From positions 30,001 to 62,000 of the forward strand of contig APJZ01000002.1 of the NCBI GenBank assembly GCA_000387965.1: DNA of 32,000 nucleotides, given 5' to 3'. Below the pieces are notes generated by a model. The model had not been told where the DNA came from and did not search any database. It saw only the letters and a list, made by a program, of their open reading frames with translations. Shown piece by piece: positions 4,607 to 29,600 of this stretch; position 1 is the first letter of the stretch; every line of letters starts with the position of its first letter. Position numbers and translations under genes: made by a program. The DNA is from Candidatus Nanobsidianus stetteri. Its GTDB lineage: Archaea; Nanobdellota; Nanobdellia; Nanobdellales; Nanobdellaceae.

Positions 4607-5002
4607 ATGCTAGATAGGTTTTTTGAATTATTTGTAATTGTCTTAGTAATATTTTTTATTACCTTATTATTAATGGAAAAAGTTTCTTATATTTATAATA
4701 TTAATGAAAAATATCAAATTATATATAATCAATTTATGGATGGAAGAGTTTTAATTAAGAAAATTACGGAACAATATACTAATAATATTTGTAATTTAAC
4801 ATCAAATAATTTTGATCCAAGTATAATGAATAATTTGGCAAATTTTCCATATGAAATAATATATGAAAATTTAAGTAATATTAGTCAAGAATACATTTTT
4901 AGTAATGATAATATAACAAACATGCAAAATAATTATATAGAATTTAATAGGGTTTGTTATTATGATGGCTCATTATTTTTAGTTAGAGTATTGGTTCAAT
5001 GA
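4607..5002 (+). CDS. Small protein with an N-terminal hydrophobic helix, Asn/Tyr-rich with N-glycosylation sequons (pilin-like candidate 1)
   Basis: MLDRFFELFVIVLVIFFITLLLM, followed by a polar N/Y/I-rich body carrying the sequons NLT, NLS and NIT. Its stop overlaps the next start (ATGA at 4999-5002). Confidence 0.6.
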   Translation: MLDRFFELFVIVLVIFFITLLLMEKVSYIYNINEKYQIIYNQFMDGRVLIKKITEQYTNNICNLTSNNFDPSIMNNLANFPYEIIYENLSNISQEYIFSNDNITNMQNNYIEFNRVCYYDGSLFLVRVLVQ

Positions 5003-5343
5003 GATCTTTTAGTATATCAATATTTATTGAGTTAGTAGTTGTAATAATTGTTTTATATTTTATTTTAACTTCAACATATTATAGTAATTTTTATATTAGA
5101 GGATATAATAAAGAAGATCTATATGCATCATTAATATCAATAAATTATATGGATTTAAATAATACACAGCAATTAAACAATAGTTTATATCAAATTGTTA
5201 CAAATATTTTACCATATTATTATGTTGAAATAAATGGACAAGTTGCATTTAATAATATAAATTTAAATGAAGCTAAACAAGGAATTGAAACATTTTATAT
5301 TATTAATGGCTCAGTAGATTATGTAGATATATATTGGAAATGA
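4999..5343 (+). CDS. Small protein with a short charged N-terminus plus hydrophobic helix (pilin-like candidate 2)
   Basis: MRS-FSISIFIELVVVIIVLYFILTS, with sequons NNT, NNS and NGS. ATGA overlaps occur at both ends. The first nine nt (ATGAGATCT) are the same as in the next gene. Confidence 0.6.
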   Translation: MRSFSISIFIELVVVIIVLYFILTSTYYSNFYIRGYNKEDLYASLISINYMDLNNTQQLNNSLYQIVTNILPYYYVEINGQVAFNNINLNEAKQGIETFYIINGSVDYVDIYWK

Positions 5344-5618
5344 GATCTCAATTTATTCTATTATATTTAATTTTAATATTATTTATTACATTATACTTTA
5401 TTTCAAGTTTACAAAACAATTTCTATTATCAACCAAATATTGGTAAATATATTGCAGAAGATTTTTATGTTAAATTATTATTATATCCAAATTATTCTTT
5501 CATTATAAATCAAACATATTATAATATCTGTTTAGAAGAAAATATGATATGCTATGATAATGGAACAAATATAATAGTTATAACTCAAAATTCTGAATAT
5601 ATATTAAATAATCCATAG
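5340..5618 (+). CDS. Small protein with a short charged N-terminus plus hydrophobic helix (pilin-like candidate 3)
   Basis: MRS-QFILLYLILILFITLYFISS, with sequons NYS, NQT and NGT. I prefer the ATG at 5340 (ATGA overlap with the upstream stop) over the TTG at 5334 used by the ORF track. The last base of the stop codon TAG is the first base of tRNA-Glu. Confidence 0.55.
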   Translation: MRSQFILLYLILILFITLYFISSLQNNFYYQPNIGKYIAEDFYVKLLLYPNYSFIINQTYYNICLEENMICYDNGTNIIVITQNSEYILNNP

Positions 5619-7072: not shown

Positions 7073-7543
7073 CTATTTATTTAAAACCTCTTTTTCATTT
7101 TTTAATATTCCTGAATCCTTAAGATAAATTAAAATAGCTCTTTTGCTCTTAAACTCATTGCTTTTAGCTCTTTTATATAAATCCCTATATAACTTTTTAT
7201 CAATTATGTTCTTCTCCTTTAATTCTCTTAATAGATTCCTTATTGCTCTTATTCTTTTAATCCAATTTTCTTTCTTGTCTAATCTAGCTTTCCTACCTCC
7301 TTTTCTAGATCCTGCTCCTCTTCTCCTTCCCTTTTTCTTTTGTTCTTTAATATAATTTGCCCATGTTCTAGATTGACCTTTAACTTGTTTTACTCTTATT
7401 ATTCCTTTATCAATTAAATCTAAAATGTCAGATCTACTTAAGGCTTTAGATACATCCTGTATTTTATTGGGATCTATCCATATCCTATCCTTTCCGACAC
7501 CAAGGATTTCAGATGCTAACCTTCTTTGTAATGATAGATCCAT
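7073..7543 (-). CDS. rpl19e: 50S ribosomal protein eL19
   Basis: MDLSLQRRLASEILGVGKDRIWIDPNKIQDVSKALSRSDILDLIDKGIIRVKQVKGQSR and KKKGRRRGAGSRKGGRKAR. Confidence 0.93.
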   Translation of the reverse strand: MDLSLQRRLASEILGVGKDRIWIDPNKIQDVSKALSRSDILDLIDKGIIRVKQVKGQSRTWANYIKEQKKKGRRRGAGSRKGGRKARLDKKENWIKRIRAIRNLLRELKEKNIIDKKLYRDLYKRAKSNEFKSKRAILIYLKDSGILKNEKEVLNK

Positions 7544-15374: not shown

Positions 15375-15554
15375 AATAATTAACAATATAATTGATAGTT
15401 GGTAAGAATTTGATATTAATATTGGTATTGGACCTATCAATATCAATCCAGCAAATTTTGTATTAGAAGAATTTGATAATGAGTAAATAAATAATAAAAT
15501 AATTGAAATAAATAGAAAAATAATTGATAAAATCAAAAATATATTATTATTCAC
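15318..15554 (-). CDS. Small two-TM membrane protein resembling the archaeal DUF131/TIGR00304 family
   Basis: Two hydrophobic segments flank GLILIGPIPILISNS. From memory, a G.I.IGPIPI core is typical of that family. Confidence 0.45.
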   Translation of the reverse strand: MNNNIFLILSIIFLFISIILLFIYSLSNSSNTKFAGLILIGPIPILISNSYQLSIILLIILLIIILIVLIIFFYKVIV

Positions 15555-15820
15555 TTTAAACTTAATTTATAAAATTTTGAATGGCCAAAATGAATTATCA
15601 GATCAAATCCATATTTATCTAAATATATTGGCATATCGCATCCACCAAAATCCGATCCAAACCAAATATATATTTCAATATCTTTATATTTTTCCTTTAT
15701 TTTATCATATATTTCTTTTGAATATGGTTTTAGTCCATCAGGAAATTGTAATAATATTTTTTTATATTTCTTTTTATCCAATGTTTCAAATATCCTATCT
15801 AATTCAAAATCTATTTCCAT
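15551..15820 (-). CDS. dph2: Diphthamide synthase Dph2, N-terminal domain only (89 aa; split gene or remnant)
   Basis: EIDFELDRIFETLDKKKYKKILLQFPDGLKPYSKEI...IWFGSDFGGCDMPIYLDKYGFDLIIHFGHS matches the start of archaeal Dph2, including the first cluster-ligand Cys. The ORF stops right after the GHS block. Full-length proteins are ~330-340 aa. Confidence 0.7.
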   Translation of the reverse strand: MEIDFELDRIFETLDKKKYKKILLQFPDGLKPYSKEIYDKIKEKYKDIEIYIWFGSDFGGCDMPIYLDKYGFDLIIHFGHSKFYKLSLK

Positions 15821-16566: not shown

Positions 16567-17018
16567 TATATATATTTGTTAATAATTGTAGAAAATTTTT
16601 TAACTGATTCTAAAATATCTTTTAATGTCTTTATATTTATTTCAAATTCTTCTCCACTTAGTGTCCTAAATTTTATAATCATACTTTTTCTATATTCATT
16701 TATTATCCTTGCATCAGAATTTAAAGCAAGCTTTAATAGTTTATAATACTTTAATGATTCTTCAAGTTCTTTATCCTTTGTAATTTCAATTATTTTTTTA
16801 TATCTTTTCATTGGACTATCGGGAATTTCATCAATCTTTTTATTTTCATATAATTTCTTAAAAAATAATTCGATTGCATAATCATAATATTCAATAACTG
16901 CTTTTATAAAACTCCTAACAGTTTCCAATCCTTTATTATTTTTCAATGAAACATTAAATATATGTAAAACCTCTTTATATCTTCTATTATATTCTAAATT
17001 TTCTTCTAAATTAGGCAT
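16566..17018 (-). CDS. Hypothetical all-helical protein (150 aa), first large gene of the MinD operon
   Basis: Long ORF with a start/stop overlap (ATGA-type) with the MinD gene. I do not recognise any motif. Confidence 0.5.
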   Translation of the reverse strand: MPNLEENLEYNRRYKEVLHIFNVSLKNNKGLETVRSFIKAVIEYYDYAIELFFKKLYENKKIDEIPDSPMKRYKKIIEITKDKELEESLKYYKLLKLALNSDARIINEYRKSMIIKFRTLSGEEFEINIKTLKDILESVKKFSTIINKYI

Positions 17019-17164
17019 GATATGTAAATATTCGCAATATATACTAAAGCCGCGAAAATAATTATAAATATTATTATTTTATTTCTATTTAATTTTATTT
17101 TTGATTTTTCCTTTCCAAACTTATATAATCCGAGATATGTAAATATTGGTAATTGGTCGGGCAT
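17006..17164 (-). CDS. Tail-anchored 52-aa protein, probable Sec61-beta (archaeal SecG) homologue; missed by the 60-aa cutoff
   Basis: Hand translation gives MPDQLPIFTYLGLYKFGKEKSKIKLNRNKIIIFIIIFAALVYIANIYISCLI. The GL.(K/R)(F/Y)....SKIKL block followed by a single C-terminal TM resembles Sec61-beta. The TATA-like TTTATATAT on the minus strand is centred ~25 nt upstream of the ATG. Confidence 0.45.
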   Translation of the reverse strand: MPDQLPIFTYLGLYKFGKEKSKIKLNRNKIIIFIIIFAALVYIANIYISCLI

Positions 17165-17166
17165 AA

Positions 17167-17174
17167 TTTATATA
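17167..17174 (+). promoter_or_regulatory. TATA box (TTTATATA) for the RNase P RNA candidate
   Basis: It is centred ~26 nt upstream of the first paired base of the RNA (17197). Confidence 0.4.
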
Positions 17175-17184
17175 GTTAGAAGAA

Positions 17185-17193
17185 ATATATAAA
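17185..17193 (-). promoter_or_regulatory. TATA box (TTTATATAT on the minus strand) for the Sec61-beta-like/MinD operon
   Basis: It is centred ~25 nt upstream of the ATG at 17164, which implies a leaderless mRNA. Confidence 0.35.
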
Positions 17194-17196
17194 AAA

Positions 17197-17427
17197 GTGG
17201 CCGTAGGAAGGTCTGCTTACCGATAAGCCACCGAGGAATCGGAGGGGGAAACCCCTGGCTACATAATAAGAAATCACGGACATATATCCTATGAAGATGA
17301 AGGGTTAATACCTGGAGGTAACTCCGGGTAAACTCGGAGAGGATATATGCACCTTGAGAAGTATGTCCTGGCGGTACAAGGCTTGTCCGCTTAGAAAAAT
17401 ATATACTAAAAGCAGCCTACGGCCACA
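17197..17427 (+). ncRNA. rnpB: RNase P RNA candidate (compact, ~231 nt)
   Basis: It is a GC-rich island in AT-rich spacer. The termini pair: GUGGCCGU(AGG) with (CCU)ACGGCCAC. There is a CR-I-like GUAGGAAGGUCUGC and a CR-V-like ACUAAAAGCAGCCUA, which can form a P4-like helix with a bulged U. Other elements are GGGGGAAACCCC, GCUACAUAAUAAGAAAUCAC, GGGUAAACUCGGAG and a GGAG-GUAA-CUCC tetraloop hairpin. Confidence 0.65.
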
Positions 17428-19134
17428 CTAATAGCTTTTTCCTATATATACATAATATTTTGCATCTTCATTACAAAATATACATTTTTTATTTTTTCCA
17501 TCTTCAGGTATAATATCAGTTCCCCTTACATCTAATGAATATCTTTCTTTAATGTTCTTTGCACATTCTTCTCTCATGCAGAATGGTACTTTAAATGCTA
17601 TATTTTTATCCAAATTATTTTCTAGATCTTTTAAATTATCTACTTTTAATATTTTATTTTCAAAATATTTTTTTGCCCTCTCTTTTAGATCTTTATCATA
17701 TTCAATAATTAATTTATTTAATTCATTTAATAAATTTTCCAATTTTACTTCGTAATTTTTTGCTTTATTATTATATTGCCTTACAGATATTGTAACTGTA
17801 TTATTTTCCAATTCTCTTTTACCAATAGATATTCTAAATGGGACTCCCAATAATTCATATTGGTTAAATTTCCATCCAGGGCTTTTTGTATCATCTTTAT
17901 CAACTCTTACCCTATATTTTTCCTTTAATAAATTATATACATTCTCACAATATTCTAATATTTTGTTTTTTTCATCTTCAGAATAATATATTGGGATAAT
18001 TATTATTTGAATTTTGGATATTTCAAAAGGTAATATTAGACCTTTATTATCTCCATGTATTGAAATTACTGCACTCAATGTTCTCATAGATATTCCAAAA
18101 GATGTCTGCCATACGAATTTTTTATTAATTAATTTATTTTCATTAAATTTATTTTTAATTATATCATTTATTTTATTTATTAAATCTTTATTATCTTCAG
18201 ATATCTCTCCAGTAAATTTTATATTTTCTTCATATGATTTAATTAATTCTTTATTATTATATAACCTTATTTTTATTTTATTTTCAACAATTTCTATTTC
18301 ATATCTATAATTATCTTCATTAAATGCCTCAAATTTATTTTTATCTATTTTTATAAAAGGATGTTCATCTTCAAAAATAATATTAAATGCTTTGGAAAAA
18401 TTTCTTCCTAATAAATGGGTAGTTCCAATTTGCAAAAATTTCCCATCTGGTAATATAGTATCTGCAGCTAATGTATAATCTGCTCCGGCAAATTTATCCC
18501 AATTAGGTCTCCTTATCCATATATGTGGTAATGATAAATGATCCCAAAAAACTTTTGAATAAATTTCTATAGATTTTTTTATCATCCTTTCAGCATCATC
18601 TAAATCTTTATGTACAGTATGAGCTTCATTCCATAAAATCTCTCTTCCTCTAATTAATGGTTTTGTTGCTTTTGTTTCATATCTATATACGGTATTTGTC
18701 ATATAAGTTAACAAAGGCAAGTCTCTATAAGATCTTATCCATAAAGAAAACATATAATACATTTCAGTTTCAGATGTAGGTCTTAATATATATTTTATAT
18801 CTTTTTCTTCTTCTATTGGTTTTGATGGAGTAACATAAAATACTTCGGATTCAAAACCCTTTATATGTTCGCTCTCCCTTTTAAATATCTCATAAGGAAT
18901 TAATATTGGAAACCAGTATGGCTCAAACCCATTTTTTTCTAATTCATCTTCTAAAATGTTCAATATTTTTCTAATTGTGAAATATCCATTTGGATAATAA
19001 ACAGGCATTCCTTTTATAGGATATCTATCATCAATAATCTCAGAAATTCTTACTATATTGTTATACCATTCAGAAAAATTGGAATTCTTATCTAAATTAC
19101 TTTCTCTCATAGTAGAAGAGATCTGATGATACAT
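17428..19134 (-). CDS. proS: Prolyl-tRNA synthetase (archaeal/eukaryal type) with a ~80-aa internal insertion
   Basis: FSEWYNNIV, ILRPTSETEMY, YRYETKATKPLIRGREILWNEAHT, LQIGTTHLLGRNFSKAF and VWQTSFGISMR. The C-terminal Zn domain is CMREEC..CIFCNE, ending in the conserved terminal Tyr. Confidence 0.92.
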   Translation of the reverse strand: MYHQISSTMRESNLDKNSNFSEWYNNIVRISEIIDDRYPIKGMPVYYPNGYFTIRKILNILEDELEKNGFEPYWFPILIPYEIFKRESEHIKGFESEVFYVTPSKPIEEEKDIKYILRPTSETEMYYMFSLWIRSYRDLPLLTYMTNTVYRYETKATKPLIRGREILWNEAHTVHKDLDDAERMIKKSIEIYSKVFWDHLSLPHIWIRRPNWDKFAGADYTLAADTILPDGKFLQIGTTHLLGRNFSKAFNIIFEDEHPFIKIDKNKFEAFNEDNYRYEIEIVENKIKIRLYNNKELIKSYEENIKFTGEISEDNKDLINKINDIIKNKFNENKLINKKFVWQTSFGISMRTLSAVISIHGDNKGLILPFEISKIQIIIIPIYYSEDEKNKILEYCENVYNLLKEKYRVRVDKDDTKSPGWKFNQYELLGVPFRISIGKRELENNTVTISVRQYNNKAKNYEVKLENLLNELNKLIIEYDKDLKERAKKYFENKILKVDNLKDLENNLDKNIAFKVPFCMREECAKNIKERYSLDVRGTDIIPEDGKNKKCIFCNEDAKYYVYIGKSY

Positions 19135-19227: not shown

Positions 19228-22173
19228 GGAATATATAGTCTCAGGAACCCGCCCGGTGGATGCCTGGGCTCGGAAGCCGAAGAAGGGCGTGGCAAGCTGC
19301 GAAAAGCTGGAGGGAGGTGCATGCAACCGTTGATCTCCAGATTCCCGAATGGGATATCCTGCCAAAAGGCATCCCGTAAGGGAGGGGAACGCGGGGAAGG
19401 GAAACATCTTAGTACCCGCAGGAATAAAAAACAATTTGTGATTTCCTGAGTAGGGGCGACCGAAAGGGAAGGAGCCCAAACTGAATCCTCTAAAGTAATT
19501 TAGAGGAGATGTGGGGTAAAGGAACGGGAGCTTCCCGTTATTATATCCTCAGAACTCCGGTGAAAGTCCGGGGCCATAGAGGGTGACAGCCCCGTATGGG
19601 GATATAATAGTGGGATTTCCCGTTTCCGGAGTACCGGCGGTTGGATTTCCGTCGGGAATTTGGGGGAAACTAGCCCCCAAGGCTAAATACTCTCCGAGTC
19701 CGATAGCGTATCAGTAGGGCGACCGAAAGGTGAAAAGAACCCTTGGCAGGGGGTGAAAAGAGCCTGAAACCGGGCGGGGATTGTCTGGTAGGGCTAGTTA
19801 AGCACCTTATCTGGGAAAATCTGGTGACAGATGAGTACCAGATAGGGTGCTAGCTAGTTCTACCGTGAGTTTTGAAGAACTTGCGGGGGAGTATACCCGA
19901 GTGGCGAGGTTAAGGTTTATACCGAAGCCATAGGGAAACCGAAAGCCCGTAACCTGGTTTCCAGGTGAGGGGCACCGTCCCATAAGGGCGGTTTAGTCAC
20001 TCGGGTATGACCGGAAGCCGGGCGATCTACCCCGGGGCAGGGCGAAGCGGGGTTTCCCGTGGAGGCCCGAAGAGGTGGGGCTTATCTCTCTCATGACCTC
20101 GGGGTAGAGGTGAAAAGCCACTCGGGCCCGGTTATAGCCGGTCCCCGCCGAAACTGACCCCAGCCAGGTCTCGGGTTGGGATCCCTATGGTGTAGAGATA
20201 CGGATTCTGTACGGGTTTCCGTACGGAGTCCAACTCCGAAGCCATAGGGTCCGTAGCCCGGGAAACGGGGATTGCGGGAAAGCCGCAATTCCGAGACGGG
20301 AACAACCGAGACCGAGGTTAAGGCCCCAAAGTGCTGGCTGAACGATTTTGAAGGAGTCTGTCCCCTAAGACATCGGGGATGTGGGCCTAATAGTGGCTAT
20401 CATCTAAGGAGTGTGTAACAACTCACCCGACGAGGGGATAGGCTCCGAAAACGGACGGGTCTAAGCCAGCCGCCGAGACCTCGGTCCGCTGGCATTGCCA
20501 GCGTGAGGTAGGCGGGCGTCCCGATGGCCTAGAAGGGTTCCTGAAAGGGAGCCTGGAGCCGTCGGGAATGAAGATCCCCGCGGTAGTAAGAATCAGACGG
20601 GTGAGAATCCCGTCGGCCGAAGGGGGAAAGGTTTCCCAGGCAATGAAAATCAGCCTGGGGTTAGTCGATCCTAATTCAGGCTCCGAGTGGAGTCTGGAGA
20701 AAGGGAAAGGGGTTAATATTCCCCTACCGCTCCGATAGATGCGGTAACGCAACATCCTTTCCCGACCCGGAAGGCTAGGCATACACGGGGGTGGGGTAAA
20801 ACTCACTTACCGTGCTAAGGGGGATAGGACCGGGGAGTGCCGTCATGGCGAGAACCGGTCTAAACCCTAATGGGCCCGAAAGGGTTATGCCGAGGCCTTC
20901 CGGCAATGAAAAGGGAAAGGATGCGATTCGGAGCGATCGTACCGAAATCCAGAATAGGTCCCCTGGGTGAGCAGCCTAAGGCCGTGGGGGTCAAGCCGGT
21001 CCAGGGAACTTGGCAAATTGGTCCCGTAACTTCGGGAGAAGGGATGCCTGCGGTGTAGACCGCAGGTCGCAGTGACAAGGGCGGGCGGACTGTTTATCAA
21101 AAACATAGCTCCCAGCAAGCCCGAAAGGGTTTGTACTGGGGGTGACGTCTGCTCAGCACCGGTATCTGAATCCCCCGTTCAAGGGGGGTAAGGACCGGTA
21201 AACGGCGGGGGTAACTCTGACCCTCTTAAGGTAGCGTAATGCCTTGCCAGTTAAATGCTGGCTCTGCGAACGACGTAACTAGCCCGCCACTGTCCCGGGC
21301 CGGCGCCCCCTGAAAAGCTATCCTGGTGAGAAGGCCAGGGACTTCCGATGGGTAAAAAAGACCCCGTGAAGCTTAACCGCAGCCTGTTGTTGCTCTGAAG
21401 AACCTGGTGTGTAGGGTAGCGGGGAGCAATGAATTCCTGCCGCTAGGTAGGAAGGATGCGACGATGAAACACCCGCCTCCAGGTTCTTCAGGGCTAACCC
21501 GAAAGGGGACAGCGGCAGGTGGGCGGTTTGGCTGGGGCGGCACCTTGCCGAAAAGGTATCGGCAGGGTCCATAAGGTCAGCTCAGGCGGGTCAGGAATCC
21601 GCCGTAGAGGACAAGGCCAAAAGCTGGCCTGACTGTGCCCTGACCATCAAGGGGCACAGGGGGGAAACCCGGGCCTAGCGAACCCCGTACTCTCACTAGT
21701 GGGGGTACGGGCTGGCGGAAAAGCTACTCCGGGGGTAACAGCGCCGTCGCGGGCGAGAGCCCCCATTGACCCCGCGGTTTGCGACATCGATGTCGTCTCT
21801 CCCCATCCTGGTGGTGCAGAAGCCGCCAAGGGTGGGGGTGTCCACCCATTAAAGGGGATCGTGAGATGGGTTCAGAACGCCGCGAGGCAGTTCGGTTATA
21901 ACTGTCGGAAGTGCTGGCTGCCTGAGGGGAAGGTCCGCCTAGTACGAAAGGAACGGCGGGCCGGGGCCTCTGGTATACGGGCTGTCCGAGAAGGGCATGC
22001 CCGGTAGCTACGCCCTAGGGGATAAGCCCTGAAAGCATCTAAGGGTGAAGCCCCCCTCAAAAATAGGCAGCCGTTAAGGGGTCGGATAAAAGATCCGACT
22101 CAGAGCGGCGGTGTAAGCTCCGAAAAGGAGTTCAGCCGACCGCTTGAAGTTCCCGTGAGACTATATATTCCCT
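19228..22173 (+). rRNA. rrl: 23S (large-subunit) rRNA, not linked to the 16S gene
   Basis: GGUGGAUGCCUGGGCUCGGAAGCCGAAGAAGGGCGUGGCAAGCUGCGAAAAGC lies near the 5' end. Internal landmarks include GACCCUCUUAAGGUAGCGUAAUGCCUUGCC, AAGACCCCGUGAAGCUU and GGGAUAACAG-like/GUUCAGAACG regions. The terminal helix pairs 19226-19249 with 22149-22174. Confidence 0.97.
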
Positions 22174-26359: not shown

Positions 26360-26857
26360 TTATAAATAATATTTTGAAAGATAATCTAGAATATTTTTTA
26401 TGCCAAAAACATACTTTTCTTTCATAGAAACTATTTCATATATAAAATTTAGCATATCTTTGTAATCTGTAAATATATAAGGTTCTTTATTTAAATATTT
26501 TGATATATAGTATTCTGAAACATTATATGCAATATTATAAAAATATTTGTTCTTCTTTTGTATTAAATATTTATATTTTTCCTCTTTTTTATAATTATAT
26601 AATAAAAAAGATAGTAAAACACCCTCTATTGGTAATATTAATATTGAGTTTTCCTTTATTTCAATCTCTTCAATTTTTTTATATATATTTAAATTAATTT
26701 TAAACCCCATATTGAATTTTTTATCTATCTTATTTATTATATCTAAAACAAAATCTTTTGTATTTGATTCTAGTGCAATTATATTTATATTAGAATTTCT
26801 TTTGAATTTTTTTGAATTTCTAATTTCCCTTTTTGTTAATCTTTCATATATGTTCAT
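26360..26857 (-). CDS. Hypothetical protein (165 aa) between the ArcTGT and uS19 genes
   Basis: The ORF has a 4-nt overlap with the TGT stop. It is K/N/Y-rich and has no motif I can recognise. Confidence 0.45.
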   Translation of the reverse strand: MNIYERLTKREIRNSKKFKRNSNINIIALESNTKDFVLDIINKIDKKFNMGFKINLNIYKKIEEIEIKENSILILPIEGVLLSFLLYNYKKEEKYKYLIQKKNKYFYNIAYNVSEYYISKYLNKEPYIFTDYKDMLNFIYEIVSMKEKYVFGIKNILDYLSKYYL

Positions 26858-28090: not shown

Positions 28091-28107
28091 GGGGATTGCA
28101 GCGGAAT
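28091..28107 (-). repeat. 3' half of the 16S processing helix (pairs with 29646-29665)
   Basis: On the RNA, AUUCCGCUGCAAU-CCCC (3' flank) pairs with GGGG-AUA-AUUGCAGCGGAAU (5' flank). That is 13 + 4 bp with a 3-nt bulge. Confidence 0.75.

Positions 28108-29600
<1,493 letters not shown>

Follow-up and report, generated by a model that had tools for sequence, protein, structure and literature searches.

A compact RNase P RNA without P2 and P3 in Candidatus Nanobsidianus stetteri and related nanoarchaea

Helices P2 and P3 and the P2/P4 pseudoknot have long been treated as part of the universal catalytic core of RNase P RNA (RPR). Can an RPR with a complete specificity domain do without them? The question is raised by a 231-nucleotide (nt) locus at 17197-17427 on the + strand of a 32,000-nt stretch of Candidatus Nanobsidianus stetteri DNA (contig APJZ01000002.1, positions 30,001 to 62,000; the window), which a first-pass annotation made from the letters alone had read as an RPR lacking both helices. 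The whole locus is matched by the archaeal RNase P family of Rfam (RF00373, E = 5.9e-20), which supports that reading. We consider it very probable (about 0.9) that the gene encodes the catalytic RPR of a Nanobsidianus/Nanopusillus-type nanoarchaeon, reduced by the clean removal of P2, P3, L15, P16, P17 and P6.

A nanoarchaeal RPR of this kind is already known, the gene since 2013 and the architecture since 2026. Podar et al. (2013, Biol Direct 8:9) found the RPR of the nanoarchaeon Nst1 with Infernal and described it as "considerably shorter" than other archaeal RPRs and impossible to fold in the typical way. "Coevolution of RNase P and the ribosome" (PNAS 2026) reported that P3 and P2 are deleted "within Nanoarchaeales (Nanopusillaceae)", gave a revised structure for the Ca. 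N. stetteri RPR (supporting information [SI] Fig. S12) and called the P2 pseudoknot "important but not essential". The window RPR is essentially the molecule of that figure, and its architecture matches. The published account consists of one sentence and an SI figure, covers a single species and describes the loss of "P3 and the 3' portion of P2", whereas both P2 strands are absent here. The nanoarchaeal case is mentioned neither in a 2024 review of RNase P co-evolution nor in a 2026 paper on the reduced type T RNase P. The present analysis adds covariation from 32 sequences, an extension to Nanobdella, strain YN1 and a deeper lineage, a conserved promoter and gene order, and an explicit argument about Pop5 and dimerization.

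Identity of the locus and its homologues

The locus lies in the GC-rich island that had been noted in the first-pass annotation, where GC content is 41-49% over 17150-17449 and 13-25% in the DNA directly on either side. The predicted fold of the + strand has -93.2 kcal/mol (z = -6.99), a stability equalled by none of 200 shuffled sequences, and the - strand folds more weakly (z = -4.70). At gathering thresholds, Rfam returned only rRNAs and tRNAs in the window and no RNase P. The comparison with the Rfam RNase P families and signal recognition particle (SRP) RNA that had been proposed as a check did, in E-value mode, give a significant full-length match: RF00373 aligned at 17193-17430 over model positions 1-288 with 71 bits. 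This is short of the family's gathering score of 84 bits because P2/P3 and P15-P17 are missing. No other Rfam family, SRP RNA included, competes for the locus (next-best E = 0.76), and a covariance model of our own, R1, scores 285.5 bits at 17196-17428. The RPRs of Nanopusillus acidilobi (68.2 bits) and Nanobdella (63.9 bits) also fall below the gathering score, so annotation by threshold is likely to miss the gene in two of the three complete genomes sampled as well as in the window; an RPR from a deep lineage, L093, passes with 92.4 bits.

A scan of representative genomes with the neighbouring prolyl-tRNA synthetase (ProRS) placed the window at 95% ProRS identity to Ca. Nanobsidianus stetteri and 91% to N. 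acidilobi. Between the window RPR and that of the N. stetteri genome, 6 of 233 positions differ. The contrast drawn earlier with Nanoarchaeum equitans, a relative without RNase P, is an apt one. Searches with nhmmer located an RPR directly beside ProRS in 13 nanoarchaeal loci, including the complete genomes of N. acidilobi, strain YN1 and Nanobdella aerobiophila. None was found by nhmmer, R1 or Rfam in the ProRS neighbourhoods (about 20 kb per genome) of N. equitans and of a "Woesearchaeota" metagenome-assembled genome with 58% ProRS identity.

Metagenomes were scanned with a pattern that made no assumption of P2 absence, permitting 0-20 nt at the position of the P2 3' strand. Of the 26 loci recovered, 22 are family members (216-288 bits), contributing 18 new distinct sequences and bringing the total to 32 distinct RPR homologues from Nanopusillaceae, Nanobdella, YN1 and one deeper lineage. 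ProRS adjoins the RPR at each of the 13 genome loci and at every metagenome locus of the family, and nearly all of the 22 also carry the genes for a 52-amino-acid (aa) protein (probable Sec61beta), orf150 and ProRS. The deeper lineage is represented by L093 and L086, which we place far from the others because their ProRS is only 37-44% identical.

Secondary structure and the absence of P2 and P3

Helices were mapped by homology to the RF00373 alignment and then tested on MAFFT alignments. Standard pairs fill 99.3% of cells in an alignment of 14 sequences, where 36 of 62 base pairs show compensatory change. With all 32 sequences the corresponding values are 99.0% and 39 of 62; sliding the partners by 1-3 columns lowers pairing to 31-45%, and none of 500 shuffles attains any of the observed measures. 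RNAalifold, applied independently to the same 32-sequence alignment, gives the same nested structure of P1, P4, P5 and specificity domain, differing only in the register of P15. The covariation-based fold that had been suggested as a check thus upholds the proposed core, with both P1 and P4 covarying.

The RF00373 alignment retains P1, CR-I, P5, P7, P8, P9, P10/11, CR-II, P12, CR-III, CR-IV, the AGNNNNAU linker and CR-V. It drops the P2 5' strand, P3 and the 6-nt P2 3' strand, and reduces P15-P17, 41 nt in the model, to 5 nt. P1 forms as predicted between GUGGCCG (17197-17203) and CGGCCAC (17420-17426), with all cells paired and four of seven pairs compensatory. It is followed by the linker UAGGA (J1/4, 17204-17208), the counterpart of J3/4 in ordinary RPRs and the site of the missing P2 5' strand and P3; the alignment deletes about 23 model positions (roughly 12-34) just before it, and its GGA is invariant in the 32 sequences. 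P4 comprises nine pairs between AGG-U-CUGCUU (17209-17218), with a bulged U at 17212, and AAGCAGCCU (17410-17418). It is recovered by the RF00373 alignment, by covariation (99% of cells paired and four of nine pairs covarying in the 32 sequences) and by RNAalifold, which also predicts the bulge. Its strands lie within CR-I and CR-V, the regions of RF00373 to which UAGGAAGGUCUGCUU and ACUAAAAGCAGCCUA align, in agreement with their original assignment.

The central claim of the first-pass annotation, that P1 abuts P4 and leaves no space for P2 and P3, therefore stands: P1 runs into P4 through a 5-nt linker, and the P2/P3 block is deleted in the RF00373 alignment of the window RPR and absent from 32 of 32 homologues. 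All of them have a 7-base-pair (bp) P1, a 5-nt linker of the form U-N-GGA and then P4, with GGAAGGUC-type CR-I directly after P1 and a single A between P4 and P1 on the 3' side. With neither P2 nor P6 present, P4 is simply nested and the RPR contains no pseudoknot.

P4 varies in two places. In L093 (8758-8991) and L086 (2515-2747), on contigs Ga0065719_106971 and Ga0105154_1001453, the bulged nucleotide is an A (GGAAGG-A-CCGCC). This is not a sequencing error, as the A occurs on both of these independent contigs; to our knowledge, RNase P RNAs elsewhere always have a U at this bulge. One sub-lineage (L101, 6267-6499; L085, 4036-4268; L081, 519-751) has a C.A mismatch at the second P4 pair after the bulge (GUCCGCUU versus AAGCAGCC), where other lineages have U-A or C-G.

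P5 and a complete specificity domain (P7, P8, P9 with a GNRA loop, P10, P11, CR-II, P12 and CR-III) occupy 17219-17375. The helices of this domain are all supported by covariation, with compensatory pairs in P7 (4/4), P11 (4/4), P9 (4/5), proximal P12 (7/11) and distal P12 (7/8); CR-II and CR-III align to the Rfam consensus, and GNRA loops cap P9 and the tip of P12. The string GGGGGAAACCCC, earlier likened to Escherichia coli RNase P RNA, proves to be P9 with a GAAA loop, and the AUAAGAAAUCAC that follows it is CR-II. A second such comparison, of GGGUAAACUCGGAG with GGUAAACUCCACCCGGAG, does not reflect homology: on the helix map the string falls in the 3' side of distal P12 and the GA-rich internal loop. 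The 5' side of that loop, UAUGAAGAUGAA (17290-17301), is probably one or two kink-turns for L7Ae, as its GA-rich character suggests. Its AAGAUGA is invariant in the 14-sequence set, G100 is nearly invariant among the 32, and opposite it, at 17336-17341, is GGAGAG. Nanobdella has A-U/A-U instead of the proximal G.A/A.G of the loop, and the distal GA/GA pair is invariant.

Beyond the specificity domain, the J5/15 linker ACAA (17376-17379; CR-IV, the "A anchor" position) aligns to GCAAG of the Rfam consensus, and two of its As are invariant. A remnant P15 of GG/CC with a variable loop of 4-5 nt (17380-17388) stands in place of L15, P16, P17 and P6. At 17389-17409 follows a fused J15/2 and J2/4, GCUUAGAAAAAU-AUAU-ACUAA, in which the linker retained from the Rfam consensus is joined through AUAU to the ACUAA of J2/4, at the site of the missing P2 3' strand. 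The segment AUAUAUAC (17400-17407), at the usual place of that strand, is invariant in the 14-sequence set, and only L086 differs (AUAUACAC) among the 32. The AUAUAU of the fused linker is self-complementary and could be a tertiary contact or a contact between RNAs in a dimer.

The absence of P2 and P3 is real rather than a blind spot of the model, because RF00373 does align both in three compact positive controls from the metagenomes, L083, L084 and L088. These have the same 3-5 nt P15 loop, yet P2 (GAGGGCAGC/GCUGCC) and a short P3 are aligned in them, at 118-198 bits; the P2 3' strand is GCUGCC or GCCACC. The controls (L083, 5799-6043; L084, 4876-5122; L088, 4217-4453) are GC-rich archaeal RPRs of 237-247 nt with hairpins aligned to both P8 and P9, and they resemble M-type RPRs. 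We considered and rejected them as nanoarchaeal intermediates combining a tiny P15 with P2/P3, since none has the ProRS gene order. The contig of L084, the one of the three whose genes were inspected, has a gene set of free-living type and is not that of a nanoarchaeon; it also carries a C/D box small RNA at 7129-7182.

The limits of the transcript lead to the same result. The promoter element proposed earlier is borne out: a TATA box, TTTATATA, lies at 17167-17174 (+), ends 23 nt before the first base of P1, is centred at about -26/-27 relative to that base and is invariant in 11 aligned lineages. The usual distance from an archaeal TATA box to the transcription start is about 26-27 nt. This spacing would have RPR transcription begin at P1 or only a few nucleotides from it, and together with coding sequence on both flanks it leaves no room for P2/P3 beyond 17197-17427. 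The flanks are the divergent 52-aa probable Sec61beta open reading frame (ORF) at 17006-17164 (-), which matches NCBIfam NF002318 with E = 7e-4 and 19 bits (below the cutoff of 55) and is kept beside the RPR in metagenome loci, and the convergent ProRS-like gene at 17428-19134 (-), recognized from its own sequence and its relatives rather than by a family scan.

Both intergenic boundaries are tight. Two divergent promoters seem to be interleaved in about 33 bp (17164-17197). The RPR TATA box is 3 nt from the ATG (17164) of the probable Sec61beta ORF, and a second conserved TATA-like element, read on the - strand at 17183-17196, lies about 25 nt upstream of that ATG, suggesting a leaderless mRNA. 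On the other side, 1-2 nt separate P1 from the ProRS stop codon (TAG, 17428-17430, - strand). The RPR terminator may be a run of five Ts at 17436-17440 (+), which falls within the final codons of ProRS; in that case the transcripts of the two convergent genes would overlap.

Predicted function and alternative readings

The retained parts are a coaxial P1-P4-P5 core with CR-I, CR-IV and CR-V, a vestigial P15 hairpin and the complete specificity domain. An enzyme built on them would be expected to act as other archaeal RNase P does. The CR-II/CR-III module would grip the tRNA elbow, the conserved A of the P5-P15 linker (CAA) would stack on the first acceptor base pair, and Mg2+ for removal of a short 5' leader would be positioned by P4, including its bulge, and by the conserved linkers next to it. 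In the cryogenic electron microscopy (cryo-EM) structure from Methanocaldococcus jannaschii (Nat Commun 2019) the P5-P15 linker provides an "A anchor" that stacks against the first base pair of the tRNA, and P9 contacts P1. In the same structure Pop5 sits on the P2/P3 junction, and contacts of Rpp30 with P2 and P3 and of Pop5 with CR-IV mold the holoenzyme into a dimer.

The protein partners expected from the literature are Rpp21, Rpp29, L7Ae and Rpp30. Nst1 has p21, p29 and p30 (Podar et al. 2013), and a later study found RPP21, RPP29, RPP30 and L7Ae in it, detected no POP5 and suspected a remodelled catalytic domain (Samanta 2016). None of the five protein genes (Pop5, Rpp30, Rpp21, Rpp29 and L7Ae) was found within the 32-kb window by Pfam and NCBIfam searches of 28 ORFs and permissive rescans of eight, six of which had no family match. 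As the helices that seat Pop5 and make the Rpp30 dimer contacts in M. jannaschii have been lost, and Pop5 has not been detected in Nst1, we predict a Pop5-free and probably monomeric enzyme. Missing helices that are precisely the Pop5 carriers and dimerization aids of M. jannaschii make this RPR a natural experiment on the co-evolution of RNA and protein.

Spacing of tRNA promoters had been taken to imply short leaders in need of 5' processing. For tRNA-Ala (TTTATATA, 2197-2190) and tRNA-Leu (TTTAAATT, 2380-2373) the distances of 29 and 28 nt from box end to mature 5' end, compared with 23 nt from box to P1 at the RPR and about 21 nt for the TTTTAAA-type box of an N. equitans tRNA-Arg, do fit leaders of about 5-6 nt that would require RNase P. 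The claim holds in part: tRNA-Glu is ambiguous, the genes number only two or three, and the DNA is very AT-rich. The related loci contain almost no tRNA genes.

It is conceivable that the RPR is a decaying, functionless relic, a step towards the complete loss seen in N. equitans. Podar et al. (2013) spoke of "partial degradation" and could not fold the RNA, which is shorter than normal and lacks elements long held to belong to the universal core; N. equitans, a relative, has no RNase P, and there are a few P4 C.A mismatches in one sub-lineage. A relic, however, would not hold 99% base pairing and 39 compensated pairs, nor would it keep the invariant nucleotides of CR-I, CR-IV and CR-V and its promoter across ProRS identities from 95% down to 37-44%. 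With three RNase P proteins also retained in Nst1, we regard decay as very improbable. Slightly less probable still is that P2/P3 comes from an extended transcript or from a second RNA acting in trans. Such an arrangement would be analogous to the split genes from which nanoarchaea build some of their RNAs and proteins, and the invariant self-complementary AUAUAU of the fused linker counts in its favour. Even so, the P2 3' strand that would be required inside the RPR is missing, the TATA spacing sets the start at or near P1, and the flanks are the probable Sec61beta gene and the ProRS stop codon. Nst1, moreover, has no split tRNA genes (Podar et al. 2013), and the P2 pseudoknot is lost in the published model as well (PNAS 2026). 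A P2/P3 lying outside the locus or provided in trans was rejected because of the promoter spacing, the coding sequence on either side and the lack of an internal P2 strand. Repurposing of an RNase P homologue as a scaffold, or for another substrate than the cell's tRNA 5' ends, is just as hard to credit: the apparently very short tRNA leaders speak for it, but invariance has been maintained in precisely those elements that canonical RNase P action would need, namely the CR-II/III module for the tRNA elbow, the linker with the A anchor and the catalytic core at P4, and the tRNA-Ala and tRNA-Leu boxes are 5-6 nt farther out than leaderless tRNAs need.

Several observations do weigh against a reduced but working RNase P RNA. 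The RPRs of the window, N. acidilobi and Nanobdella all score below the Rfam gathering threshold. The slid-partner control can be biased towards a structure that was itself taken from one of the aligned sequences. P15 consists of two invariant pairs without covariation, and RNAalifold prefers another register for it; since both strands are invariant, the alignment does not decide between the two. The absence of Pop5 is taken from the literature, and a divergent Pop5 may have escaped detection. The leader evidence, from two or three genes, is anecdotal. Setting these beside the covariation and the conservation of promoter and gene order, we retain the reading of a catalytic RPR from which P2 and P3 have been removed.

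A broader proposal is more tentative, and we hold it at somewhat below even odds. The loss of P2/P3 may be a shared state of the hot-spring nanoarchaeal clade sampled here (Nanopusillaceae, Nanobdella, YN1 and the lineage with about 40% ProRS identity) that co-evolved with the loss of Pop5. It would have given a Pop5-free, monomeric, pseudoknot-free RNase P representing the last functional stage before the total loss in N. equitans, with a "universal" P4 bulged U that is replaceable by A, as in L093 and L086.

Other features of the window are recorded here. An 89-aa ORF at 15551-15820 (-) matches only the first 58 of 302 positions of the diphthamide synthase profile PF01866, which fits the split Dph2 gene reported for Nst1 (Podar et al. 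2013). The 23S rRNA (19232-22167, +) and 16S rRNA (28107-29599, -) genes are unlinked, on opposite strands and about 6 kb apart, with protein genes between them. No significant Pfam or NCBIfam match was obtained for four small ORFs of 131, 114, 94 and 165 aa, at 4607-5618 (+) and 26360-26857 (-). The first three lie close together in a row that ends at tRNA-Glu, and the sizes of all four would fit divergent small RNA-binding proteins.

Comparison with known RNase P RNAs

A natural, conserved RPR without P2/P3 but with a full specificity domain means that the core can be smaller than assumed, a point already in print (PNAS 2026). Relative to type A, represented by the RF00373 consensus, P1, P4, P5, P7-P12 and CR-I to CR-V all align. 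The window RPR differs in lacking P2, P3, L15, P16, P17 and P6, in its length of about 231 nt against a model of 288 positions, and in scoring below the gathering threshold.

The resemblance to type M, known from M. jannaschii, extends to the short P15 with a small loop, the lack of the RCCA-binding L15 and of P16, P17 and P6, the A-anchor linker, the CR-II/III module and the use of P12 as a protein-binding arm. The catalytic domain of type M, however, comprises P1, P2, P3, P4, P5 and P15, with P2/P3 carrying Pop5 and Rpp30 and building the dimer, whereas P2 and P3 are missing from the nanoarchaeal RPR. Type M RPRs are generally described as lacking P8. The nanoarchaeal RPR has a helix aligned to P8, which is not listed among the M. 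jannaschii stems in the cryo-EM paper.

Type T (P) of the Thermoproteaceae (Pyrobaculum) is likewise a naturally miniaturized archaeal RPR tied to the loss of a protein subunit, and the two reductions run in opposite directions. Type T has lost most of the specificity domain together with Rpp21 and keeps the catalytic domain; the nanoarchaeal RPR keeps a covarying P7-P12 and trims the catalytic domain, with Pop5 reportedly missing. The budding-yeast mitochondrial RPRs of the RPM1 type, a second recognized example, share the lack of P2 and P3 and a retained core of P1 and P4 (CR-I/CR-V). In contrast to those RNAs, which have lost most or all of the specificity domain and rely on a large unrelated protein, the nanoarchaeal RPR has a full specificity domain and would be served by archaeal protein partners.

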